Origin: Eledone cirrhosa
Lineage: Eukaryota
Assembly (NCBI GenBank): GCA_964016885.1
Contig: OZ024742.1
Span: 364,188,001 to 364,252,000, forward strand
Length of the DNA stretch: 64,000 nt
Direction: 5' to 3'
The translations under genes and the position numbers were made by a program. Shown here in pieces: positions 13,030 to 61,543 of the stretch (its first letter is position 1; every line of letters begins with the position of its first letter). Under the pieces are notes generated by a model that saw only the letters and a program-made list of their open reading frames with translations, was not told where the DNA came from and searched no databases.

Positions 13030-16000
13030 TAACAGATTAAAGTTTAAGCAAAGAATCGCTGCTTTCACCCTTAACAGGATCTTCTGAAACTAACAAAGTC
13101 AATCTGTAAACGCAGAAGTGGATATTTCAAAAAACGTTGCAACGGGAGGAAGACAGGAAGACGATACTTTGGTTCATGGAAACGTTCCCTGGCAAAGAAC
13201 GGGAAAAAACGAATATAATACGTCATTATTTGGAGCGGTGAAAAACAATTACGCGCAAATACGGAACCACGTTTATGGTATAAAAGAGGTCGTATACTAA
13301 TGTTCTCTTAGGTAGTTCATAGAGACGTTCTCTGGCAATGAACGAAAAAAAACGAAGATAATACGTCATATGTGGATCGTGGAGAACAATTGCACGCAAA
13401 GACAAAACCACGTAAATGGTATAGCTGAAGTCGTAGACTAAAATTCTAACTATGAGACCGAATGAATCTCCGTTTCAGAGTTAAGAACAAAGTAGATAAA
13501 TACAATACAGAGGTAATAGGAATTAAATAAATACATACACGTATACAAATACGTACATACACAAGCATACGCGAAAACACTTACCATAGGTATACAAAAC
13601 CGCGCACATATATATATTTGTGTGAGTGTATGCGTGTATACAAATAAATAAATAATTAAATAAACGTATATAAATAAATAAATACGTATATAACAAGCGC
13701 ACACACATGCCTACATGTAACTACACAAATGTTCGGAGACGTAAGTCAACCACAACACCTACATACGTACGAACCTGCAATCTCACACATACGCAAAACA
13801 CCCGTATACACATAACCAAACCATATGTACCAGAAAATATAAAATTATATGCCATAACATATACAATCAAATATACGTACGGGAAGGTATACGTACCTTC
13901 ACAAAACATACAGGTAATATATACTTACCTATGCAAATAAGTAATGGTATAAACAAAACATATACTTAGCTACCACATCAAGACGTAATATATACACGTA
14001 TAGATTGTACTATCCGTTAGGGTATAACGTGGGGCTGTAATACAGGAAAGTTTTGTGCAATTTATATTTACAAGCCGAAATTGCCTCAGATTTTTTGTTT
14101 AAGATGTGATCTGTGGCGTAGAGTATTTCCAGAGCCTCAGCGGCGCAGAGGTCACATGGTCTTTTATTTCCGTTATACGATCTAGCCCTAGCTAGGATCT
14201 CCCAGTGTAACTTATATTGGGTGTGGTTGTCTTTTAGACTCCAGATATAAGCTGAAAGTGACGTCATATTCCTTCTTAGAGGGTATAGAAAAGAATGGGT
14301 ATGCATGTAAAGACGCTGCTTGAATCTATTGGCGGTTAACCCTATGTAGGCCCTACGGGACGTGGGTGTTTCAACCTTACATTTGTAGACAATGTTACTA
14401 GAGAGGCATTTCCCGGATAGGGGCAATCAATCCGATTCCTACAATTACAGTTAGTACTAACTACAGGGTTGCACGTGTTCCTACGGCTAGGTAGTTTAGC
14501 TAAATTTGAAGCTGCGATGTTATGTGCAAAGTTAGGAGTCGTAGAGTAAGACATTTTAATGGTATTTCTATTAAAAATGTTACTATGTTTATGTGTAGGG
14601 GGAAAATGCTTCGTAATAAGGGAAAGAAAGATCTTAGCTAATGGTGTGGCCACCTCCATATTATATGGTGCGTTATACCAACAAATGCGACGGGATCTAT
14701 TTCTTCTAGGTCTATTTTCGTACCCTGCATATGCTACCTTATCGACAAATCCACTCCGAGCAAGAACTTCATTGTAATAAGTGGAATGGTCGTTGAAAAT
14801 ATGCTCGTTAGTAGATAGACGGGAAAGCCTCAACGAAACGTTTCTTACCAGGTTCTTGGTTATGCTGGCAGGATGGTTGGAATGCTTACTTATGTAATTA
14901 AGCGTATCATTCGGCTTTCTATACGGGTAATACAACCCGTTCAATAAATTGAGGGTAACGTCGAGGTAATTAACGACTGAGATATTGGCCTCAACCTGTA
15001 TAGAGAGGCTGAAGCCTTTAAAGAAGGCTGTGAGTTCTTTTCTGAACCTGTCGCAAGCACGAGGTCCGCACTTAGTCATGGTCAAAAGACCATCATCACA
15101 GTATAAACCACCGCCCGCGTTGGGGAATTCGTCCTTGATAGAGAAAAGAAGGAAAGGGCCGATAAGATCAGTAACCTCCGCAGAATCGCTGGCGCCCATA
15201 CTCACGTCGAATGGGGTACTATTGGATTTTTTAATCCAAATAGAGTCGTCGAAATTAATCACCGACTTACGGGCATTGAGGATGACATCAACTTCGAAAT
15301 CCTTAACCACTGTGAGTGTTTTAGCGAAATTAATAGCTCTAAGGAGAAGTGGTAAAGTGATGGAGGAGTAGTAATTGTTGATGTCGAATTGGATAAAGCG
15401 GCAATGTTCCTTGTTACATATGCCGTTGAACAAATCAATCACCGCGAAAGAATTGTTCAATAGTGCAAGAGGGGCCAAACTTCTAATTTCATGTATAATT
15501 CTTTCAAGAATCGTTTTACTAAGTCTACCTAAATCGGACTTCGTAGGGTTAATAAGCCGAATAGAGGGGTTGTTCGGAAAATTGGATTTGTGATCCTTCA
15601 GGGTAAAGTGGGGAGAAATAGGGTCCAGAGATTCGGTCCGGTCCAGGATGTTGAGATCAGATGTGATTTTCAACCCAGCATCGTTGATTTCATTGATGAC
15701 GCACCGATTAGTTTTACGGTAATCCTTAGTTACAGCATTATGTAGTAGCTGATGGTAAGTACTGCGCTCAACTTGATATAGGTTGCCAGTTTTGTCGGAA
15801 TGGACGTGCACGGCATTAGAATCCTGAATAGAACGAATTCTATTCTTCAGGTCCTGCTGGAAGGAATTGTTCCTATTCCGAAATTTGATACTCCGTATGA
15901 GTTCCAAGACATCATTTTCGAAGGGTAGCAATGCTGGGTTACACGGGGGGTTATTATAGGTTTTACCCAAAATGTATCCTGTTTGTTGTCTGCTTTTCGC

Positions 16001-16282
16001 GGATTATCGAAATAAAAGGCACGCCAACGCAACCTTTAAATGAACGCGTCTGTTTTCTGTATCAGGAGTTTTAGGCATGTTTTCCTGCTTGGTACGGGTA
16101 TGTTCTTTGTAGAAATATTCAGATGTTGTTTCTGCATGATGAATATAAGTCAATAGAGTGCTCATTGCTTAAACTTTAATCTGTTATTTTAATAAATATT
16201 TGCTCTACGGTTCTTATATATTTGATATATTTTTATCCTTATCGAGCCCTCTTTGGATTCTAGTCTTCAAATTTATTATTAT

Positions 16283-27837: not shown

Positions 27838-29656
<1,819 letters not shown>

Positions 29657-29849: not shown

Positions 29850-32253
29850 TCAAGATTCTTTATCTGAAATCGTGTGTTGAAACCGATATTGTTATACTTT
29901 GGGTGGGTCATGCTGCTAATAAGAAACACACGCACCAGTTGCTTTCACTTCAGTTTATTATATATTTATAAATTTACAAATTTATAAATTTATAAATTTC
30001 TGGTTGGTTGGTTGGTTCCACAACCAGATAGTTGTTTATATATAGTCATAGTCCTTTCGTCACACACTATGTGACCTCTTCAGTGACTGGGGATTCCTTT
30101 CTTTGTTTCTGTGCCTCTCCTTTGTTCTGTCCTACGCCATTTTGTTTCTGTGTGTGTGTTGTGTGCTCAGTCTGCGCATGCGCCACATCCGGGTATCTGT
30201 GTGTGTTTATGTTCATTTATCTATTTGTTTATTTATTTATTTATTTACATATTACTGGTTGGTTGTTTGTTCTATGTGTGTGTGTGTTTTCATTTTGTCC
30301 TTAATTGTAAGTTGTGATGTTGCTGTTCCACTCATATTTTCTATTTAATTTTGGTTGTAATTCTTTTATGTTTATTGCCTCTGTAATTTGTCTAAACATT
30401 GCGTCTTTTCTGTGTGTAGATTCTACTTTTATTTCTATGTTCTCTAATTTACCCTTGTGTTCTATTTTAGCATGTTGGTAGAGTACAGATGATTCTTTAT
30501 TATCTTGAAGGTCTCGCCAGTGTTCATTTATCCGTTCCCCTATACTACGAGCTGTCTCACCTATGTACACTATATTTTTGTCTCTACATTGTCCTTCAGT
30601 ACATCTTATGCTATACACTACATTTCTAGTTTTACAGTTAATATGGGGGCTTATTTTACAGGTTATACATTGCTTATCTATACATGAGGGTCTTTGAAAA
30701 GGGTATGTCTTGCTAATAAGTGTTTTTACGGAGGTACCTGGTCTTTCTACTATCTTAATATTGAGTTTATGTTTATTTAGGGCCCTTCTAAATTTGTAGG
30801 CTAGTTCGCCTCTAGGGGTTGTATCGATGAACATTACACTCTGGTATTTATTGCTATCATACCATGAGTTTATTCTATTTGCCTTGTTCCTAGTTCTTTC
30901 TATTCTATTCCAAAATTTGCTCCTATACAAGGGGCAGGTCCCATTTATGTCATTATTTCCCATTTTTTCCCATTTGGTTCTGGCTCCTCTATACACTCTG
31001 ATTCTATCTCTCTGATTTTAGCCAGAGAACTGCATACGGTGGATGAAGTGTTGTATGTGTCTCTCTAGTTCTTCGGGGTTGCACATGCGGGACACATTTC
31101 TCATCACCCGTACCAAATCCGCAATCAGTATGTTGATTTTGGTATGGTCCGAAATGGCCGAGTTTCGGTGGATCAGATGTTTGGAAGTCATGTGTTTGGC
31201 ATAATGGGAATGGAGGATTTGTTTTTTGTTGTTAATGGTATCTAACCAGAGCTCTGTGTCTAGTACAGGTAATCGATGGTTGGGGTGTCTACTTGGGTAG
31301 TCTATAGTAACTCTAATGCTCTGGTGGATGGAGTTTGCTATTTGCTGGATGCTTTCCATTGTGTTTTTCTCTAGTTCCTGACTGTTCTCTAGTGGGGGTG
31401 TCTTAACTACGATGTTTATGTCATCTACGTAGCGGGAGTACATTATCAGGGTTAAGGGGTCTTCTAATTGTTCTTTAAGTTTAAGTTTAAGTCTACTGTC
31501 CCACCATACCATGAATAAGTTAGCTATGTCGCCTGCAATGCTAACACCAATGGCTGCTCCTTCCTCTTGGGCATATGTTTTTCCATTAAATTTGAACATA
31601 TGTTCCTTAAGGGTTAGTTTTATGCTGGCCCCTACCGCATGTGCAATCATTTTCTTCAGTTCATCGTGGTTTTCGGGTGTCCGTATGGCTCTGGTCCACC
31701 CGTTCCATCTATCTGTGTGGGTTTTCTCGGCCATTGAGGTAATGGTAGGTGGTCTGCCTCTTGCTGGTCTTGTAGGGCACAGGTTGCTAAGGTCATATGT
31801 GTCTAGTTAACTATTACTATTGGTAAGCTTAAGTAGAAGTCCCAGCTCACTGGTATCAATCTCACGGAACTCAACCTTGCACTCATTGATCATTTCTACG
31901 CATTTCTCCACAGCAAAATCCACGTCAATAGATGGATACAGGGACACAACATCCATACTGCCTATTATGCAGTTTGTTAGGTCCCCAGATCGGTTACTCA
32001 CGCCGATTCTGCTGAGGAGGTCCTCCGTGCTGTCACATACATCTGGGGACATTTCAATGATGGGGAGTATGATCAGGGAGAGGAAGTAGGACAGTCTGTA
32101 GTTACTAGCAATGTTAGCTCCACAGACTGGCCGTGTTGGTGGTCCCGCCACAGGGTCACAGCCCGTTTTATGGTCTTTTCGAAGCCCATACAACGCCGGC
32201 ACGTCATTGTTCCAGGCCTGGAAGTTGTTGGCAGTCCTTTTGTTGGGCTGCAT
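29850..32253 (-). mobile_element. 5'-truncated inverted copy of the PLE at 32328-36560
   Basis: Near-identical reverse complement of the element from ~34190 through its 3' pLTR; ORF fragments 31807-32253, 31018-31734 (YSRYVDDI) and 30301-30996 (GIY-YIG); hammerhead at 30044-30088. Confidence 0.95.
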
Positions 32254-32327
32254 TATACTCGTCCTGCATTATACTCGTCCTGCATTATACTCGTCCTGCA
32301 TTATACTCGTCCTGTTGGGCTGCATTA

Positions 32328-35300
32328 TACAACTATCTGGTTGTGGAACCAACCAACCAACCAGAAATTTATAAATTTATTATATTTGTAAATTTATAAA
32401 TATATAATAAACTGAAGTGAAAGCAACTGGTGCGTGTGTTTCTTATTGACAGTATGACCCTCCCAAAGTATAACAATATCGGTTTCAACACACGATTTCA
32501 GATAAAGAATCTTGCTAAACAAATTCAGAAACGAAATATCGTATGCCTTAGCCAGGCTAACAAGATACTGAAAACCACCATGTTCTGTTGTCTACGAAAA
32601 ACCATAACATCTCGACAACTACACTTCATAAAGCAGTGTGCCTCATCCAGAATCTACACCAACACCATCAATACCGACGTTAGAAGATTACAACTAACCA
32701 AAAAACAAGCAGATAGGCTAAAACGAACATTAATTCTAAACATAAAAAAGAAGATCTATAGAGAATTAAGTCATCAAGAAAAACAAAAGCGTATCCTAAT
32801 ACAAGAAATAGCTAGGATCACCACACCAAGAGAGAAACTAATATTTATAAGCCTTATACGCCCTGAAGAACAGTACATTACTCAAGAATGTGATAAACAC
32901 TTTAACAAGAAACTAAAGTGGCTTAAACAGATAAAGCTAAATCAGGATACTATAGAGAATACCAATAGATATCCCGACAAAATTGACGGTATAAACATGG
33001 CCGACACATCATTAACAGAAGAGTTCAACAACAAAAACACCAATATATATGGTAACGCAAGAATAGATAATGACGAAATGTCTGTGTTATGTTTGTCCCC
33101 GAAATTTGCGACATTCAAGAAGGTAAATATGATTAGTTGTCTGTCAGAAATAGAAAAATCATTTACAAAACTACGCTGGAGCATCAAAAACAAAAACAAA
33201 AACAAAAGCAACAATATACGCACACGCATATACAACACTCATCCCAACAACAACAGACACACAGACACAAACAACAATAGCAACAACACACACATCAACA
33301 ACAACAACAATGACAACATACCCAGAAACAACAACAACAGACACGCAGACACAAACAACAATAACAACACACACAACAACAATAACACACACGGAGACAA
33401 CAACAACACACATCAACAACAGCACACACCAACAACACACACGCATTCAATGCCTCTCACCACCACCACAATCTTAACAAACACACAGACACAGAAAACA
33501 AGTAATGACAGTAGCACAGAAATCACAGAAATAAGGGAAAGTAATAGGATTAAAAGGAGAAAGGAGACGAAGGACAAAGAGAATAACCAAGACGAACACA
33601 CAGACACACAAAATAGGGTAGATAACAACAATGAGCCAGTGGAAAGAGACATGAGTAATTATGAGAGACATAGAAACAACCATGAGGCTGTTGGTGGAAA
33701 TAGAAATAGAAACAACACAACTAACAATAACAATAGCACTAGTACACATAAAGCAGCAGCCTGGAACTCTCCGTTTTATAATCCCTCCGATAAATCATTC
33801 GACCTGCGACGAGTCCACGCCACGACTTTACCATTTAACAAACGCACGCAATTGCCGTCGCAGGTCGATGAACAAACAGAAGCACAATTTAGTATAGCTA
33901 GATCCGAACTTAGAAATATTATAGAACAGTATAGCAAGAAGCATAATAGAATGGATGCCCAGCAACTGGGAGAAAAATCTGCAAATGGCTTGCGTAAGCT
34001 CATGCAGCGCTCACGTAATGGAGAGATAGCATGCTTTCCAACAGACAAGTCTGGCAGAATGTCGGTCGGCAGCCTGCCAAACTACATCCAGGCAATGCAA
34101 CCCCACATCACTAACACAAGAGAGGTAACACCACAGGAGCATGAGGATAGAGAAAAAGCCATCAATGCCCATATGGTGATGTGGACGAATATAATGCAGC
34201 CCAACAAAAGGACTGCCAACAACTTCCAGGCCTGGAACAATGACGTGCCGGCGTTGTATGGGCTTCGAAAAGACCATAAAACGGGCTGTGACCCTGTCGC
34301 GGGACCACCAACACGGCCAGTCTGTGGAGCTAACATTGCTAGTAACTACAGACTGTCCTACTTCCTCTCCCTGATCATACGCCCCATCATTGAAATGTCC
34401 CCAGATGTATGTGACAGCACGGAGGACCTCCTCAGCAGAATCGGCGTGAGTAACCGATCTGGGGACCTAACAAACTGCATAATAGGCAGTATGGATGTTG
34501 TGACCCTGTATCCATCTATTGACGTGGATTTTGCTGTGGAGAAATGCGTAGAAATGATCAGTGAGAGCAAGGTTGAGTTCCGTGGGATTGATACCAGTGA
34601 GCTGGGACTTCTACTTAAGCTTACCTATAGTAATAGTTACCTAGACACATATGACCTTAGCAACCTGTGCCCTACAAGACCAGCAAGAGGCAGACCACCT
34701 ACCATTACCTCAATGGCCAAGAAAACCCACACAGATAGATGGAACAGGTGGACCAGAGCCATACGGACACCCGAAAACCACGATGAACTGAAGAAAATGA
34801 TTTCACATGCGGTAGGGGCCAGCATAAAACTAACCCTTAAGGAACATATGTTCAAATTTAATGGAAAAACATGCCCAAGAGGAAGGAGCAGCCATTGGTG
34901 TTAGCATTGCAGGCGTCATAGCTAACTTATTCATGGTATGGTGGGACAGTAGACTTAAACTTAAACTTAAAGAACAATTAGAAGACCCCTTAACCCTGAT
35001 AATGTACTCCCGCTACGTAGATGACATAAACATCGTAGTTAAAACTCCCCCACTAGAGAACAGTCAGGAACTAGAGAAAAACACAATGGAAAGCATCCAG
35101 CAAATAGCAAACTCCATCCACCAGAGCATTAGAGTTACTATAGACTACCCAAGTATACACCCCAACCATCGATTACCTGTACTAGACACAGAGCTCTGGT
35201 TAGATACCATTAACAACAAAAAACAAATCCTCCATTTCCATTATGCCAAACCCATGACTTCGAAACATCTGATCCACCGAAACTCGGCCATTTCGGACCA

Positions 35301-36560
35301 TACCAAAATCAACATACTGATTGCGGATTTGGTACGGGTGATGAGAAATGTGTCCCGCATGTGCAACCCCGAAGAACTAGAGAGACACATACAACACTTC
35401 ATCCACCGTATGCAGTTCTCTGGCTACAATCAGAGAGATAGAATCAGAGTGTATAGAGGAGCCAGAACCAAATGGGAAAAAATGGTAAATAATGACTTAA
35501 ATGGGACCTGCCCCTTGTATAAGAACAAATTTTGGAATGGAATAGAAAGAACTAGAAACAAGGCTAATAGAATAAACTCATGGTATGATAGCAATAAATA
35601 CCAGAGTGTAATGTTCATCGATACAACCCCTAGAGGCGAACTAGCCTACAAATTTAGAAGGGCCCTAAATAAACATAAACTCAATATTAAGATAGTAGAA
35701 AGACCAGGTACCTCCGTAAAAACACTTATTAGCAAGACATACCCTTTTCAAAGACCCTCATGTATAGATAAGAAATGTATAACCTGTAAAATAAGCCCCC
35801 ATATTAACTGTAAAACTAGAAATGTAGTGTATAGCATAAGATGTACTGAAGGACAATGTAGAGACAAAAATATAGTGTACATAGGTGAGACAGCTCGTAG
35901 TATAGGGGAACGGATAAATGAACACTGGCGAGACCTTCAAGATAATAAAGAATCATCTGTACTCTACCAACATGCTAAGATAGAACACAAGGGTAAATTA
36001 GAGAACATAGAAATAAAAATAGAATCTACACACAGAAAAGATGCAATGTTTAGACAAATTACAGAGGCAATAAACATAAAAGAATTACAACCAAAATTAA
36101 ATAGAAAATATGAGTGGAACAGCAACATCACAACTTACAATTAAGGACAAAATGAAAACACACACACACATAGAACAAACAACCAACCAGTAACATGTAA
36201 ATAAATAAATAAATAAATAAACAAATAAATAAATGAACATAAACACACACAGACACCCGGATGTGGCGCATGCGCAGACTGAGCACACAACACACACACA
36301 GAAACAAAATGGCGTAGGACAGAACAAAGGAGAGGCACAGAAACAAAGAAAGGAATCCCCAGTCACTGAAGAGGTCACAGAGTGTGTGACGAAAGGACTA
36401 TGACTATATATAAACAACTATCTGGTTGTGGAACCAACCAACCAACCAGAAATTTATAAATTTATAAATTTGTAAATTTATAAATATATAATAAACTGAA
36501 GTGAAAGCAACTGGTGCGTGTGTTTCTTATTGGCAGCATGACCCTCCCAAAGTATAACAA
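32328..36560 (+). mobile_element. Full-length Penelope-like element with direct pLTRs; single ORF of ~1230 aa broken by one 2-bp deletion
   Basis: ORFs 32430-34904 and 34861-36144: GSMDVVTLYPSI, QEEGAAIG, YSRYVDDI, LPVLDTELW, C-terminal GIY-YIG NVVYSIRC..YIGETARSIGERINEH..RQITEA; pLTR repeated at about 32330-32478 and 36414-36560. Confidence 0.95.
36361..36405 (+). ncRNA. Minimal type I hammerhead ribozyme in the 3' pLTR
   Basis: AGTCA-CTGAAGA-GGTCAC agagtgt GTGAC-GAAA-GGAC-TA-TGACT. Confidence 0.8.
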
Positions 36561-49904: not shown

Positions 49905-52900
49905 TTACAGTTGAAAATTGCAAACTTGACTGTCACCACAGAATGTGAACCTGAAGATTGCGAAAGCAGGAAAGTACTTGTTCAATTAACACTTAACATC
50001 TAATATTCTACCATACTATTTCATTCTAATACCATTATACATTTTAAAGGATTGTAAATAAAACGAGTAAAGCAGACAAAGTTGGAATTCCTTTTATTAA
50101 TATAATCTTCTATACACAATCATACACACCCGTGTATATTTATTTATATATATATATATTTATATTTATATTGTGTATATGCCAACATGTCTGGAAAGCA
50201 ACAAATGGAATAAACAGAATCAGAAAGAATTCTAAAGGAGACATCATCGAAATTATCAACACTTATCATGATGATGGACACACAATCCTCTATTTTAAAG
50301 AAAATAGAAAAACAATCTACAGACGGAAAACTTATAACTGAACATATAAACTCCGAAATTAAGAATTTAGCTGAAATTATACCAACAGTTATCAAAGATA
50401 CAAGAGAAAGCCTACCACAACCACCTTGGATGTCAGAACTAAACGAAAGAAATTTGGAAAACAAAACACATCAAAGAAGAAAAGAAATGTGGAAGACATG
50501 GAAAAAATTTCTTAACATAAGAAAACAAACAAGCATACAAATGCGAAAAATATGTCGAAACACATTCGAAATGGCTCTCTCTAACGGCACCCATACTCCC
50601 TCGTAAATACCTAATTACAGAAACTGTAGGAGAACCAGAAGAAGAAACAAAACTCCGATGGGAACTTACATTGACAAAATTCAGAACCGACATCTCCATT
50701 TCTCAATGTAAACAATGCCGCTACAAAGCCTTTGATGACCAAATTGAAGTCAAAATTTCAAAGCTAACGACTGGTAATATAGCTGAAAAACTACGAGAAC
50801 TATGGATCAGAGATACCTCAAAAGAAGAAAGCAAATCAAGAAAGTTATAGCAGCAGAAACAATTATTTCTCGACGAATATGCTGCAGATTATGGTAAAGA
50901 GAAAAAGCATTAAAAGTGGACAATCTCACCAACACAACATACGACCGAACACGTGGCAACACAAACACTTACATTACCTTGAATCAAAGACGACTACGGT
51001 AAGAACTCTTCGCTTTTTCTACAAAAACACCCTAACGCACACACCATGAACAAAAAGCACAAACACGATAGTTATTCCTTTGACCAGACTACGAGAAGTA
51101 GGAAAACCAGGAGATCATTCTCAAGATCTCAACAGAGACTACCCACAAGGAACGGGGACAAATACTGTAGAATAACCAGATCACTCTCAAGATCTCAACA
51201 GGGATTACCCACAAGAAACTGGGCGAAAAAACGATCTAAACCTGAAAGCAAACCTAGGTCATTTCCCCAGATTGTTAAAAATAATGCTAACAAGAAATGG
51301 AAAAATAATATACATAAAACCAAAAATAGGACAAAAAACATAACGAAACTAAATATAATATCACGACCAAAAGTTCATCAAGCGAACACCAACAGGAATA
51401 TAAATCCTGAACAGAGAAAAATCCATTTTTTAACGTCAGGACAACAAAAACCGGAAAAAGAAAAACTCCAGGAGGAAACATACCCAAAACAACTGTACAC
51501 GTAGATCCTAAAATAATTAATTTATCCAAAAGAGATCTTGACAATGATGAAATGCAAATTCTGTCAAAAGGACTGAAATTCACACCGACTCCAACCGTCA
51601 ACCACCAAGAACTGAAGGAGGATACCCAAGAATTCTGTCGAAAATAACAACTTGTAGAATTCTTCGCTGATAAAAGTAATGAGTGATGAATCATAGTAAA
51701 GAATAAATCAAATTTCACTCCGCCAAAAGGAAGAAATATCTATCTCGACCAATACATTGACATCCTGTCTAAATTTCCTCTTAGACGTAATACTAATGTT
51801 AGGACACACATTAACAAATCAGAAATGTCTGCACTTAAACGTATAGAAAATGATAAAACAATAATAATTCAACAAGCAGATAAAGGGGGTGCAGTTGTTA
51901 TGATGGATGCTGAATACTACAAAGATTTGGTTGAAGAACAACTGAAAGACACAACATTCTATCATGAAATACCGTCAAATATAGACCACAACATCATGAA
52001 GAAGATCAACAACCTGGCTTCAAAATAACACAACTCACTTACTGATAAGGAAAGAGACTACATCACCAATTTTGAGCCAAAACCCAGCAACCTGTATGGC
52101 CTACCGAAAGTTCATAAGTCAAAAGAAATACAACTGGCAGTAAAAGAACAAAACAGTGAGTACATTAAATTACTACACCCAAAAGGCTTAAAACTTAGAC
52201 CTATTATAGCTGGTCCAACATGCCCTACCCACCGTCTAAGCAATTTTGTTGACATTATTGTGAAACCACTATGTATTCACATACCCAGTTTCATCCGGGA
52301 TGATATCGACTTCCTGTCCCATCTTCCCAAAACCACGGAAACGAATTCACTTCTACTTAGTTTTGATGTGGTAAGCCTTTACACCAACATTACACATGAT
52401 TTAGGAATAAAGGCGGTTAAATACTGGGTGGAAAATCATAGAGAAGTGATTCCGACCAGATTCACAGCGCCATTTATATTAGACGCAGTCAAACTTATTC
52501 TGCAAAACAACACTTTCTTCTTCAATGGAAAGAATTACATCCAAATTAGAGGCACAGCGATGGGAACGAAGTTTGCTCCCGTTGTCGCGAACTCTGTAAT
52601 GGGATACTTAGAACAACAACTCTACCAAGAAATAGAGGAAAAATATAGAATTGATTTTAGAAAGTACATTGAAAAATCTTGGAAGAGATACCTTGATGAC
52701 TGTTTCATCATCTGGACAGAATCTCTAGATACTCTGGATGAGTTCAATATCCTCCTGAATAACCTACACCCTTCTCTCCAATTCACACAAGAGATGAGTA
52801 GCACCAAATTACCATTCCTAGATATAATGGTAATCAAAAACGACATAACCATTACCACGGATATATATTATAAACACACAGACACCCAGCAATATCTGAA

Positions 52901-53577
52901 TTTTAAGTCATGCCATCCACCTCATACAACACGCAACATCCCATACTGTCTAGCCAGAAGAATTTGTACCATTATAGAAGATACGAATACCAGGTACAAA
53001 CGCCTAACAGAACTGAGAGAATTTTTGCTCAAACAAAAGTACCCATCTCTACTTATAGAAAATGGCATACAGCGGGCTATAAAAATACCTATACTACAAC
53101 TTAGGACAACCTAAGGAAGAAGAAACCAAGAACTGGTCATACCATTTATAATGACACACAATCCATGTCACCAGAATATCTTCAACACTGCCAAAGCAAA
53201 CCTACCGATTATTATTCAAAGTAATGAATTAAAAGGCTTAATCACAGACCGATCTTTGACTCTTAGTAAAAGACAGCCGAAAAATTTGAAGCAATTACTA
53301 ACAAAAGCAAAGTTTGACCTTAACAACAAAGACCAATCATTCACCGTATCTAAATGCAATGATAGTCGATGTGGCACATTTCAATCCATACACAACCTGA
53401 AGATTGCGAAAGCATGAAAGTACTTGTTCAATTAACGCTTAACATTTAATATTCTACCATACTATTTCATTCTAATACATTTATACATTTTAAAGGATTG
53501 TAAATAAAACGAGTAAATCAGACAAAGTTGAAATACCTTTTATTAATATAATCTTCTATACACAATTATACACACCA

Positions 53578-57398: not shown

Positions 57399-57464
57399 TT
57401 AATATAGATGAGATGCTACATGATTAGAACTGTTTCATTCTATAGAAATCATCAGAATCGGGCC

Positions 57465-57515
57465 AGATTCCTGATGATTTCTAAAGAATGAAACAGTTCT
57501 AGTCCTGTAGAATCT
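57465..57515 (+). ncRNA. Type I hammerhead ribozyme (family D)
   Basis: AGATTC-CTGATGA-tttc taaa gaat-GAAA-CAG ttctagtc CTG-TA-GAATCT; inverted partner at about 57411-57459. Confidence 0.8.
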
Positions 57516-57624
57516 CATCTATATTAACACTATATATATATATATATATATATATATGCTATGTATTGAGTACCTTACTTACTGTGGTTACCTCCGATTC
57601 AACCCGGAATAACTTATCTATCTA

Positions 57625-57731: not shown

Positions 57732-58764
57732 ACCAGATAGAAAAATGCGTACAGCAAAAAAAAGTAAGATTGTTGGAATATAAACCTTTAAAAATACAGG
57801 ACAAGAAACTAAAATAAAACTTTAAAGAATTAGACAAGAAATAAAAAATTTTACAATAATATTAGTGGCAAAATTTTTATTGGTAAAAAATCGAGTTCCA
57901 CATTCATAGGTTCTGGGTACCACATTCAGAGGTCGTCGTCAGACAGGGGGGATCATCTGATCCTGGTTTGAACAGCAATTGGGCCATAACCATACCCCTA
58001 TTTCATCATTCGGCGACACGCCTCATGTGTCATGCATAATGTGAATGGACCCATGGGCCCATGAGCACAGATCTTGAGCAGCAGCGGACGGTCTTGTCGT
58101 CCCGCTCATCCTTGATCTTGACCAACCCGTCCATCTTCTCCTTGCATCTTGTTCTTGAGTTCAAGTCCGGCAGTCCAGATGAATGCGTGCCACATCTTTT
58201 TGGTACAGGAAGGGGGGGGGGGGGCAGGAGGACTGGAGGGATGACGGGACAGAGGGAGGGAGGACCGGTGGTTGAGGGAGGTGCCGTAGTCGGTGGTCAG
58301 AGTCGACATCTTGTCCCGGTCGTCTTCTGCATCTTCGTCTGGTGTTGCGGGACCAGAAGTGCATTCTTGGAGGAGATCTGCAGCTGCATCGGCCAATTTT
58401 TCTTGCAATGGTCATTCTGACGGAGCAGAACTGCTAAGCCAACCAATCCCAACCAGAACCAACCGCTCAGGAGCAACGCACAATGAGAGCATGACAATTA
58501 TTATACACTAATCAAGAAGATACTGGGGCATAGCACAGGAAACGAATAAAAAAAGTTTGCCACTAATATTATTGTAAATTTTTTTATTTCTTGTCCAATT
58601 CTTTAAAGTTTTATCTTAGTTTCCTGTCCTATTCTTTTAAAGTTTTATCTTAGTTTCTTGTCCTATTCTTTTAAAGTTTTATTTTAGTTTCTTGTCCTGT
58701 ATTTTTAAAGGTTTATATTCCAACAATATTACTTTTTTTTGCTGTACGCATTTTTCTATCTGGT
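57732..58764. mobile_element. Non-autonomous TIR element with ~145-bp TIRs and a GC-rich coding-like internal fragment
   Basis: ACCAGATAGAAAAATGCGTACAGC... at 57732-57878 is inverted at 58550-58764 (right TIR has extra ~33-bp tandem copies). Confidence 0.8.
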
Positions 58765-59037
58765 CTACTATTTTTTAAGGCAATGCAAGCAACAACTATC
58801 TAATAATTAAATGATCATAGTGAATTACTGACAAGTGATTGACATTTTAAAGTTCTTTTGAGTATAATTGCAATCTAGTTGAGGCAACTGGCTTAATGAC
58901 AAAGCTAGTAAATCATGAATGCATTTGAGATGATTAGTGCATAATAGTGAATTGGTGAAACTTGTGCATTTCAATGGTGTTACAACAATAGATGTAAGTT
59001 ATATAGTAGTAATACTTTATCATTTTAACTTTTTAGA

Positions 59038-59397
59038 ATGGACAAAAACCCATGCAAAGAAATGACTTTGACTGCAGTGATTCTCTCCAATTTACTTACA
59101 AAGCAAAACGTGGTCAAATACCTTATCATCTCTGATAAAATGCCCATTGAATCACTGAAAATCGGATGCATGGAATTCCTCATAAAATGCACCTATGAAT
59201 CGGAAGCCATCACATATATCAATGGATATAAGGAGTTGTTCACACTGGAAGACCATCACTTCATTTGTGACTTCATCAGTTATCTCCACGATTATCTCAG
59301 ACACCCAATGCCATTGATGAGAGGTGATCCAATGTGTGAGCATGTAACTAATCTTATAGAAGTTGTTATCGACCACCTGGCTTTTAGTGACATTTGA
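59038..59397 (+). CDS. 119-aa protein with BACK/BPM-like helical domain
   Basis: Intact non-repetitive ORF; LSNLLTKQNVVKYLIISDKMPIESLKIGCMEFL..AITYINGYKEL resembles the SPOP-type BACK pattern (by eye); 43-nt GTAAGT..TTTTAG candidate intron at 58994-59036; AATAAA at 59483. Confidence 0.55.
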   Translation: MDKNPCKEMTLTAVILSNLLTKQNVVKYLIISDKMPIESLKIGCMEFLIKCTYESEAITYINGYKELFTLEDHHFICDFISYLHDYLRHPMPLMRGDPMCEHVTNLIEVVIDHLAFSDI

Positions 59398-59577
59398 CTG
59401 ATTTGACTGATAATGATGTATTTTTAAAAAGTATGTGTACATTCTTGTTACTATTTTAAGGCAATGCAAGCAACAACTATTTAATAAAATTTAAATTTAA
59501 AAATGACCATTGTGCATTACTAGTATGATGACATTTTATTAAGTCACAAAATTATTCAGTCAGCCATAGAACAAGGA

Positions 59578-60331
59578 TCAGGTGGCAAAAACATTGGCAA
59601 AAATTTGTGTCAATTTAAGATTTCCAACATTGTTCAAATGAATCATATCTGGTTTGAAGTCAGATTTGTCAAATTTTGACCAATTTTCAATGTTGTGAAG
59701 ATTGGGCAAGTTCAATTTTTGAATCATTTCTTTCATGCAGTAATTAAACTTTTACAAACGAGAATTTCTCTTGCCCAAGTCATTTTTATTTTCAATTACA
59801 CTTTGTGGACGTGGAATGACACCACTGTAGAAAATGGGTGTACAGTGGTGCTTTTCCGCTATTTTCTGTAGCCTTGCAAAGAGACTCTTCCCCTGTTTTT
59901 CCGGTTTTGTGCCTCGAATGGGCACTTTGTCCTTAATTTACAAATAAATGATTAATAAAAAATACTTGGGCAAAAATTATTGTATTACTTTGCACAGCTT
60001 TGTAGTGCCAACGGTGCGACGAGGATTCAGATCATTAGAGCCGACATGAACCACCAATACTTTCACAAAAGGACAACAGATAACAATGTTGGCGATTAAC
60101 ATTACCTGGCCCTGACGGGCCCCAGGTATACAAAATATCTAAGTATTTTTGTTGGTATGATAAGTAAATACATTTGAATTACTATTTTTATACCTTCTGG
60201 TCATTCGATTTCGCCACATTTCTAATTATGGATTTGTAAAAACTGGCATGAATGTGAATTTGATCAGTCCAATTGCCCGATTTTAGTGAAAAGTTTTGAT
60301 TCGAAATGGAAATACTCCATTTCCGTGCCAT
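59578..60331 (-). pseudogene. Three-exon SGNH/GDSL hydrolase gene (~213 aa) with one premature stop
   Basis: Exons 60331-60194, 60138-59989 and 59931-59578; phase-0 GT-AG introns of 55 and 57 nt; spliced product has KSIIRNV (block I), FCIPGAR (II), VVHVGSNDL (III), IFYSGVIPR and DMIHLNNVG (V); TAA at 59754-59752. Confidence 0.8.
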
Positions 60332-60948
60332 AGAAAAAATTAATTAGCCGATCAAAAAGCCGCGAAACATCATTTTTAATTAAGCGAAATTAGTGGATGC
60401 ATATCTCAGAAAATATTGTACACTATTCGCACCTATCGCACTATTCGCACCTATCGGTACAAAAATATAGCGCACTATTCGCACCTATCGGTACAAAAAA
60501 TCGCACGACTGTTAATAATACTAGAAGTGCAAACTATCTGTTGAATACCTGGTATATGAAGAGCAACCAATACGATCGGTCGGCGATCGGTCTTGAAGAA
60601 GAATGAAGAATGAAGTGAAATTTTGGTCTGGTTGTTGTCATCGGTGTTTCGCAGGGATGCCGGCACGAACAAAGGTGTCAGTGACACAAAGTTGTCCGCT
60701 TGAACAAAGGTGTCGGTCCGACAAAGGTGTCAGTCAGACAGACAGTCAGACATTGTCACAGTCGGTGCGACAAAGCGATCAATGCGATTAAAAAAAAATT
60801 TAACTCACATGTTTACCTATATTTTCGCAAACTATTGATAGATTGGTACAAAAAATAGCTTTGATAATAAACATAAATTTTTAACGAAGTATTTAAAAAG
60901 CATTTTAGCAGTGAAAAGTGAAGTAATGTTTCACACTGACGCAAGTAG

Positions 60949-61074
60949 GGCCGTTCAGAAATGACGTAGTCAATTAGGAGGAGGGGATTCGGCGATTTGA
61001 CTACATTTGACTAACGTAATCACAATCACAAGAGTTCCGCCGAAAAAAATTCGTCATTTCTGGATTACCTCCCC
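60949..61074. mobile_element. Small MITE (Zator/Harbinger-like TIRs), possible TAG TSD
   Basis: TAG|GGCCGTTCAGAAATGACG ... CGTCATTTCTGGATTACCTCCCC|TAG. Confidence 0.5.
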
Positions 61075-61543
61075 TAGCGTCACGCTTACTACTCACTCAC
61101 TTGAACACAAGATTTATCAGCAAACTTTGATTATAAACTTTTTCCCGCTGGACCAAATTTCTAGATTTTTAAGCCAAAAGATGCGCAATGAACTACTTTT
61201 CATGCTCATATAAGTTTTATCTCAGTTAAATAAAGTAGAGCCGCGCTGTACTGTCGTAAACAGACGATTGCCAACGAAAACACGACCACAACAATATTAC
61301 TAAACGGACTACCGTCCGTTTAGGATATATATATATATATATATATAGGAACCAGTAAGACCCCGACAGCTGAGCTCAAGCCGTTTCGACGGCTAATTCT
61401 GGACTAGTCCAGAATTAGCCGTCGAAACGGCTTGAGCTCAGCTGTCGGGGTCTTACTGGTTCCTATTACCCACTCTACTACCTCAAGTATTGAGTACTTT
61501 GGTGCGTTATGGTCCACCTGGTTCCTTACCACATTTCCTTCGT

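Follow-up and report, generated by a model that had tools for sequence, protein, structure and literature searches.

Extent and identity of the mobile element

The stretch of the Eledone cirrhosa genome analysed here (contig OZ024742.1; 64,000 nucleotides, hereafter the window) contains, at 58766-61323, a compact block that had been described as two convergent genes with very short introns, followed by a terminal hairpin. The question raised by this locus is whether such genes belong to the host or are the cargo of a mobile element and, in the latter case, whether that element is a virus-like element, the end of a large DNA transposon or something else.

Comparison of the stretch 58766-61340 with its own 3.0-Gb genome gave 741 candidates, and the 40 that were scored produced 41 matches of 96-99% identity (the window copy itself was set aside). 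The similarity among copies extends leftward to 57733, i.e. about 1 kb past the cassette, and the flanks beyond the element ends differ. The block recognized in the original prediction is real, but it is only part of the element, which spans 3,593 bp (57733-61325, minus strand; 5'-TC ... CTGG-3', referred to as family A) and sits between the A and the T of a (TA)n tract. Both genes and the hairpin travel together in the dispersed copies, which bears out the suggestion of a cargo-bearing mobile element. Hundreds of copies were found, both termini could be defined, and the linked transposase proved to be a RepHel. The 5'-terminal 26-mer occurs 317 times in exact form in the genome (control, 0), and 11 copies diverge from the majority sequence by 0.6-1.2%.

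The insertion sites were examined at both ends. TC is preceded by A in 29 of 30 family A loci, CTGG is succeeded by T in 54 of 55 copies, and, of 45 copies with both ends, 43 are inserted at A|T. Target duplication is absent from the paralogous empty sites of the five loci with informative flanks (L007, L016, L032, L099 and L117; microsatellite or gapped rows of the table were left out). The breakpoints in contigs from three public runs coincide with these element ends, and a head-to-tail junction of family A ends had no match in the assembly.

Introns that are short and bounded by GT-AG, together with poly(A)-like signals, might be expected of ordinary host genes, but the view that the two genes are single-copy genes of the host deserves almost no credence: all 150 scored matches of the BACK-like ORF are copies of 96-100% identity, and the copy number, the common ends and the divergence of the flanks outside them contradict a single-copy locus. 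A virus-like element, the end of a large DDE-type transposon or a 1-kb MITE (57733-58763) lying beside an unrelated cassette is very improbable. SGNH and BTB/BACK-type genes are known from other mobile elements, and the 1-kb unit does have long, MITE-like inverted repeats; however, a solo MITE had to be rejected, as this unit is joined to the rest of the element in 20 of the 20 best-scoring loci. The lack of target duplication speaks against all three, and RepHel is the sole large protein between the ends. Since longer copies with the same ends encode RepHel, the 3,593-bp element is a non-autonomous Helitron (a deletion derivative) and not a virus, an identification that we regard as close to certain. 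In other words, the window contains one of several hundred near-identical, shortened Helitron copies with remnants of two passenger genes.

The hairpin at 61300-61323, originally noted as closing the block next to (TA)n, is a true element end, but one that marks the 5' start of a Helitron on the minus strand. TC is followed there by a perfect hairpin with a 10-bp stem and a 4-nt loop (61300-61325, minus strand; predicted energy -10.2 kcal/mol), which shows a compensatory pair change in subfamily A2; perfect 10-bp, GC-containing hairpins are found in only four places within the window. Adjoining it is an asymmetric subterminal inverted repeat of 13 bp, represented here by its 5' half (61289-61301, minus strand; element nt 25-37); the 3' half, with one mismatch in the window copy, is located at 57763-57775. 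This repeat (13 bp in A and A2, 10 bp in a sister family, B) connects nt 25-38 with a site 30-34 nt from the 3' end; its positions in A and B match and its sequence differs. Family B starts with TC and a different, longer hairpin (661 exact copies), preceded by A in 20 of 20 cases. In locus L110 a family B 5' end starts two bases past a family A 3' end, and doubled or nested 5' ends are present in several copies (L105, L119, L243/L244).

Several other repeats share the window with this element. Just past the (TA)n flank there is a perfect, loop-free palindrome whose arms measure 61 bp (61345-61466), which is not part of the element: it is absent beside other copies, and the end of one of its arms recurs in L052. 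An imperfect palindrome (57400-57526; 56-bp arms, 93%) is a separate repeat that is also found in L009. Reverse transcriptase-like frames occur at 32421-36144 (+), 30301-32268 (-), 14342-16003 (-) and 52029-53114 (+); the first two form an inverted duplicate with a GIY-YIG-like tail and are, judging from their motifs, presumably Penelope-like. A 294-aa frame at 28106-28990 (-) contains motifs that we take to be those of a Merlin/ISXO2-type transposase.

The RepHel parent and its passenger genes

Twenty stretches around 5' ends were fetched, and long frames were present in L102 and L105. L102 carries two consecutive ORFs (829 aa, then 478 aa), with DUF6570 and Helitron_like_N above the Pfam cut-off, and RepHel lies between the same ends in L102, L125, L129 and L137. 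A search of the genome with the L102 Rep revealed about 20 copies that are 87-100% identical, as well as a sister set with 56-58% identity. Seven long A/A2 copies combine the 5' end, RepHel, passengers and the 3' end across 9-12 kb. All seven are frame-broken (the longest frames are of 1,904 aa plus 507 aa), and their proteins contain DUF6570, an HUH-type Rep, a PIF1 helicase and a C-terminal ubiquitin hydrolase (UCH) domain above the Pfam cut-off. The 3.6-kb family descends from such RepHel copies of about 12 kb. The top PF14214 matches in the genome were rejected, since they are HLE1-type and unrelated to the ends of this element.

The sister family B (58% Rep identity to A) has retained seven stop-free frames of 2,230-2,245 aa; its copies are about 99% identical, and the Rep and helicase motifs are intact in the copy that was read. 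A tree built from 57 Rep domains places families A, A2 and B inside a UCH-bearing clade (support 100), to the exclusion of endonuclease-bearing proteins and of four proteins of HLE1 type encoded in this genome; the tree is a quick search whose rows do not include published reference sequences. DUF6570 and this tree place the A/A2/B transposase on the HLE2 side. Relatives of the RepHel at 30-43% identity include insects and a nematode.

Three further observations concern the transposases. Near the RepHel N-terminus, A and A2 contain the motif GCVELNPGP (L102:1959-4445, L121:2350-8061), which we assume to be a 2A-like motif; it is missing from B, and similar motifs occur in P0043, P0045 and P0046. 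The closest RepHel-UCH relative (P0001) is labelled as a gammaproteobacterial MAG and is probably animal DNA in the bin. Near-identical HLE1-type Rep copies lie about 80-210 kb apart in two regions of the assembly (G000 C20:3.5-5.2 Mb and C27:13.6-15.5 Mb), nearly all on one strand, possibly forming a very large tandem array.

Codons 1-34 of the RepHel ORF are still recognizable in the window (60230-60331, minus strand), as an identical sequence opens the 829-aa frame of L102. At the deletion junction, codon 34 of RepHel is joined to the SGNH gene directly past its GDS. The window family arose through this fusing deletion, and what had been taken for the first SGNH exon is the N-terminus of RepHel. 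The short tandem repeats that had been noted upstream are present (near 60420 and at 60660-60740, within 60420-60740); in long copies they lie upstream of the RepHel start, and thus belong to the 5' region of the transposase.

Of the spliced SGNH gene that had been predicted on the minus strand, the SGNH-like exons with GT-AG introns stand. The remnant (59578-60229, minus strand, SGNH part only) consists of the pieces 60229-60194, 60138-59989 and 59931-59578, separated by two predicted introns (60193-60139, 55 nt; 59988-59932, 57 nt). Besides having a RepHel-derived first exon, the gene is damaged. Block I reads YKS instead of GDS in the 3.6-kb family, and the window frame contains a stop (59754-59752), upstream of the DxxH block, which is private to this copy: the codon is open in 11 of 11 other copies, and position 59754 is C in contigs of the three public runs. 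The remaining blocks (G, GxND and DxxH) are found as IPG, GSND and DMIH. Block I is GDS, in the context IVGDSIIRNV, in the long copies L075, L076, L123/124 and L127/128. The protein matches Pfam PF14606 below the cut-off (E 0.0037) and groups with GDSL clusters in the ESM Atlas.

In the long copies, three successive exons ahead of GDS match PF08719 (NADAR) at positions 4-67, 81-116 and 118-162. Their scores (18.2, 15.7 and 12.9 bits) are each below the cut-off of 35.1, and their sum is above it. As the last of these exons runs in frame into GDS, the prediction for the parent gene is a spliced fusion of NADAR and SGNH, from which the window copy lacks NADAR and the GD of the GDS motif. Homologue searches with the SGNH last exon and with the NADAR/SGNH junction exon returned no match, both being weak negatives. 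A genome search with PF08719 detected Helitron-borne NADAR only (1 match among 4 candidates), and a spliced host donor could escape such a search. The contigs of the three public runs (one study) contain deletion joints only, with none at the predicted introns. An intact SGNH ORF with PF13472 above the cut-off lies 3 kb upstream of a related RepHel in a metagenome contig (L175:2199-2837, minus strand); it was tried as a relative of the window SGNH and discarded, because the two share no similarity.

The second passenger is the predicted 119-aa BTB/BACK-like ORF (59038-59397, plus strand, antisense to the element), which is present and open in the window copy. It is full-length and stop-free in 9 of 12 copies (one with a short in-frame deletion is counted among them). 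In the ESM Atlas it falls into BTB/BACK clusters (0.91-0.92), and nine of its ten best family matches belong to this clan; BACK gave no match in Pfam, the PDB yielded no sequence match, and the single-sequence structure model reached a pLDDT of 39. The introns of 43-57 nt that had been predicted for the two genes exist as GT-AG candidates of 43, 55 and 57 nt, but the shortest (58994-59036, ahead of the BACK-like ORF) joins no coding sequence: it is preceded by an in-frame TAG (58989-58991), so that it could be an intron of the 5' UTR at most. Both converging AATAAA signals are also present, at 59483 (+) and 59535-59540 (-); with an AATAAA density of 2.4 per kb in the window, two such signals are weak on their own.

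One or both passenger genes are missing from many derivatives, and A2 and B carry neither the SGNH nor the BACK-like gene. Since the passengers differ between families and are so frequently dropped, they are likely to be hitch-hikers.

The 3' fold-back and its possible role in termination

The most unusual part of the element, its 3' end, lies beyond the coordinates of the original prediction. In family A it has the form of an inverted repeat of 140-210 bp with a loop of about 0.7 kb. In the window, the outer arm (57733-57871, minus strand) has 139 nt instead of the usual 207 or so and ends with CTGG. It is followed by a GC-rich loop of 685 nt with broken frames only (57872-58556) and by an inner arm of 207 nt (58557-58763, plus strand), which comprises four 34-bp units and is an inverted copy of the 3' end, followed by T. 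The sequence flanking the inner arm (58764-58806) is conserved across A, A2 and B, and 34 nt of it recur at 59454-59487. A short hairpin 10-12 nt before the end is absent, only a 3-bp stem being found there. In A, A2 and B the best fold of the last 70 nt has a predicted energy of -2.7 to -4.9 kcal/mol, and the inner arm is the predicted pairing partner of 196-199 of the last 200 nt; the energy predicted for the last 1,150 nt is about -300 kcal/mol.

Among family A copies with both ends (1.4-12 kb), 46 of 48 retain the inner arm, as do 36 of 37 copies of family B, in which several distinct deletions are represented (35 of 37 family B copies end with CTAG|T). The deletions reach 11 kb and have several breakpoints, yet they stop short of the inner arm. 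Arm motifs are found 754 times in the genome, compared with 317 5' ends. The two arms are alike within a family (174/175 in A2, about 99% in B) and different between families, and the loops are unrelated. The inner arm was not detected, with a correct 3' end, in L106 and L108 (family A) and in L265 and L131 (family B); that of L108 may only be mutated. As each of these four is a single copy, loss of the arm before insertion cannot be separated from loss after it. Three copies (L005, L083 and L091) end at the loop-side edge of the inner arm, as if the loop and the outer arm had been excised together. The A2 loop contains an open frame of 205 codons (L122:1471-2085) with no match in Pfam and with a Cys/His pattern that we presume to be PHD-like.

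In studies of Helraiser, the 5' end was essential, the 3' hairpin acted as a terminator and the 3' end was not essential (PMC4778049); its donors are double-stranded circles with joined ends (PMC4778049, PMC5876387). On the simplest interpretation, the long fold-back probably serves as the termination signal in place of the missing short hairpin. In a scheme modelled on Helraiser, a RepHel provided in trans would nick the A|TC junction next to the 5' hairpin and displace one strand. Once displaced, the outer arm would zip onto the inner arm, so that the edge of the duplex would coincide with CTRR; cleavage of the strand at this point, its joining to the 5' end and its insertion at another A|T site would follow. 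The whole reading, i.e. a non-autonomous derivative that depends on RepHel from longer copies and carries a terminating fold-back, seems likely to us.

The fold-back might instead mainly prime the second strand, with the released 3' end folded onto the inner arm and extended by host polymerase, as in parvovirus hairpins; this role, which we consider unlikely as the principal one, and that of a terminator are not mutually exclusive. When the arms of A, A2 or B pair, the terminal base of the element lies right at the edge of the inner arm, which would form a primer-template junction, and Helraiser donors must be double-stranded (PMC5876387). Moreover, among the 24 of 55 family A copies whose arms are equal in length, there are three variants private to a copy that occur in both of its arms (shuffle mean 0.34; 43 of 10,000). 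On the other hand, 39 of 43 inner-arm variants in family A are unshared, and the single shared variant of family B is not significant (608 of 10,000). If hairpins were transferred, roughly every second copy should have an inverted loop, whereas 0 of 55 family A copies and 1 of 34 family B copies have it flipped; a rolling-hairpin flip-flop was rejected as a rule on this count (1 loop in 89). The family B copy with the inverted loop is L271. Finally, a 3' end consumed by end-joining cannot also act as a primer.

A third explanation sees in the fold-back the neutral remnant of an ancient self-insertion in inverted orientation, its arms kept similar by occasional gene conversion, with the asymmetric repeat of 10-13 bp alone terminating as proposed for Helitron2. 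It would account for the resemblance of the inner arm to an integrated 3' end (CTRR, then T) and for the copies from which this arm is missing, and inverted self-insertion has been proposed for Fusarium Helitrons (PMC5148889); the matching positions of the short repeat in A and B, despite its different sequence, also fit. Nevertheless, many independent deletions spare the inner arm, and the repeat together with its flank persists between families at 58% Rep identity while the loop has been replaced. We therefore find the relic improbable, even more so than a mainly priming role, and retain termination as the preferred function.

Related transposases were also found in metagenome contigs (80 loci, 43 of them over 6 kb). 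In 2 of these 43 a long inverted repeat lies 3.6-5.1 kb past the RepHel-type frame (L170, 211 bp, 100%; L175, 304 bp, 99.3%); its arms are alike in the two loci and do not resemble those of A or B. In nine loci (L172 being a duplicate of L175) there are similar stretches past the transposase, and six of these loci end no more than 615 nt from the arm; in L148 such a stretch is followed by 1 kb with no partner. Most of the other contigs end too soon past the frame to reveal a fold-back. The ends of these elements are not obviously CTRR, and they are single copies from which ends are not definable. These comparisons support, and do not prove, the generality of the fold-back in the UCH-bearing clade.

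Relationship to known Helitrons

By domain content, the present lineage resembles HLE2 subgroups c and d of HELIANO, with which it shares DUF6570 (an HLE2 marker), Rep, PIF1 and UCH (found in these two subgroups); their terminal structure is not described in the portion of the paper examined, the supplement of which lists five HLE2 insertions in Octopus sinensis (PMC11417382). HELIANO assumes inverted repeats of 11-18 nt and T|T targets for HLE2 (PMC11417382, as far as its text was available), and our lineage departs from both. Like HLE2 (Helitron2/Helentron) elements, it has short asymmetric inverted repeats and a 5' hairpin, but the 5' half of the repeat, at nt 0-2 in the Helitron2 description consulted (PMC3627910), is shifted inward to nt 25-38, and the short 3' hairpin and the T|T (or T|C) target are lacking. 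An apurinic endonuclease domain, characteristic of Helentrons, is absent after the helicase in the long-copy proteins, which have UCH in its place.

The nearest known counterparts are the proto-Helentron of Phytophthora (PMC4067079) and the HLE2-reverse elements FoHeli3-5 of Fusarium (PMC5148889). As presented in the sections consulted, they resemble the present elements in having an HLE2-type RepHel with DUF6570 and no endonuclease, and a 5' stem-loop ahead of a short inverted repeat (see also PMC11417382). FoHeli3-5 likewise lack a 3' hairpin (PMC5148889), and the CTAG end and A|T target of the proto-Helentron (PMC4067079) both occur here, CTAG in family B. The differences are an animal host, a start with TC rather than TT or TG, the C-terminal UCH and the fold-back of 140-300 bp, which goes unmentioned in the sections seen; these elements were compared by description. 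With canonical Helitrons (HLE1; Helraiser) the lineage shares 5'-TC, CTRR-3' and A|T insertion with no duplication, as well as passenger gene fragments and many short derivatives (PMC4778049, PMC5876387, in the parts consulted). It differs from HLE1 in its transposase, which is of another clade and has DUF6570, in the position of the short hairpin at its 5' terminus, and in the long fold-back that replaces the 3' hairpin.

An SGNH gene on a Helitron is already known: the texim genes of fish are intron-containing SGNH genes linked to a Helitron, as here, although in our long copies SGNH follows NADAR and lies downstream of RepHel (compared by description with the accessible text of PMC4021074). 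NADAR domains have been reported, in the part of the source consulted, from Ectocarpus Gypsy and oyster Tx1 ORF1 (PMC12477816). Those are retrotransposons, whereas the putative NADAR described here belongs to a predicted spliced passenger of a rolling-circle element and to a predicted SGNH fusion. A literature search for NADAR together with SGNH returned no relevant paper, and one for a long Helitron 3' fold-back returned no description; an earlier record is possible in Repbase, Dfam, subscription journals and most supplementary figures, which were outside its scope. No such fold-back is described in the consulted portions of papers on octopus repeats (PMC13282606) and on Paramecium (PMC13085455).

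To conclude, the genes of the window itself are broken passengers and of little importance in themselves, while the NADAR-SGNH passenger adds predicted ADP-ribose-processing cargo to Helitrons. The literature consulted leaves unsettled how HLE2-type Helitrons end copying and how any Helitron strand becomes double-stranded, and its cell assays rest on one reconstructed HLE1 element. The lineage described here provides sharply defined ends for the UCH-bearing clade, with an end structure that would be mis-called by annotation tools relying on short repeats and T|T targets. With the seven open frames of family B and its copies of about 99% identity, the role of the fold-back is directly testable.
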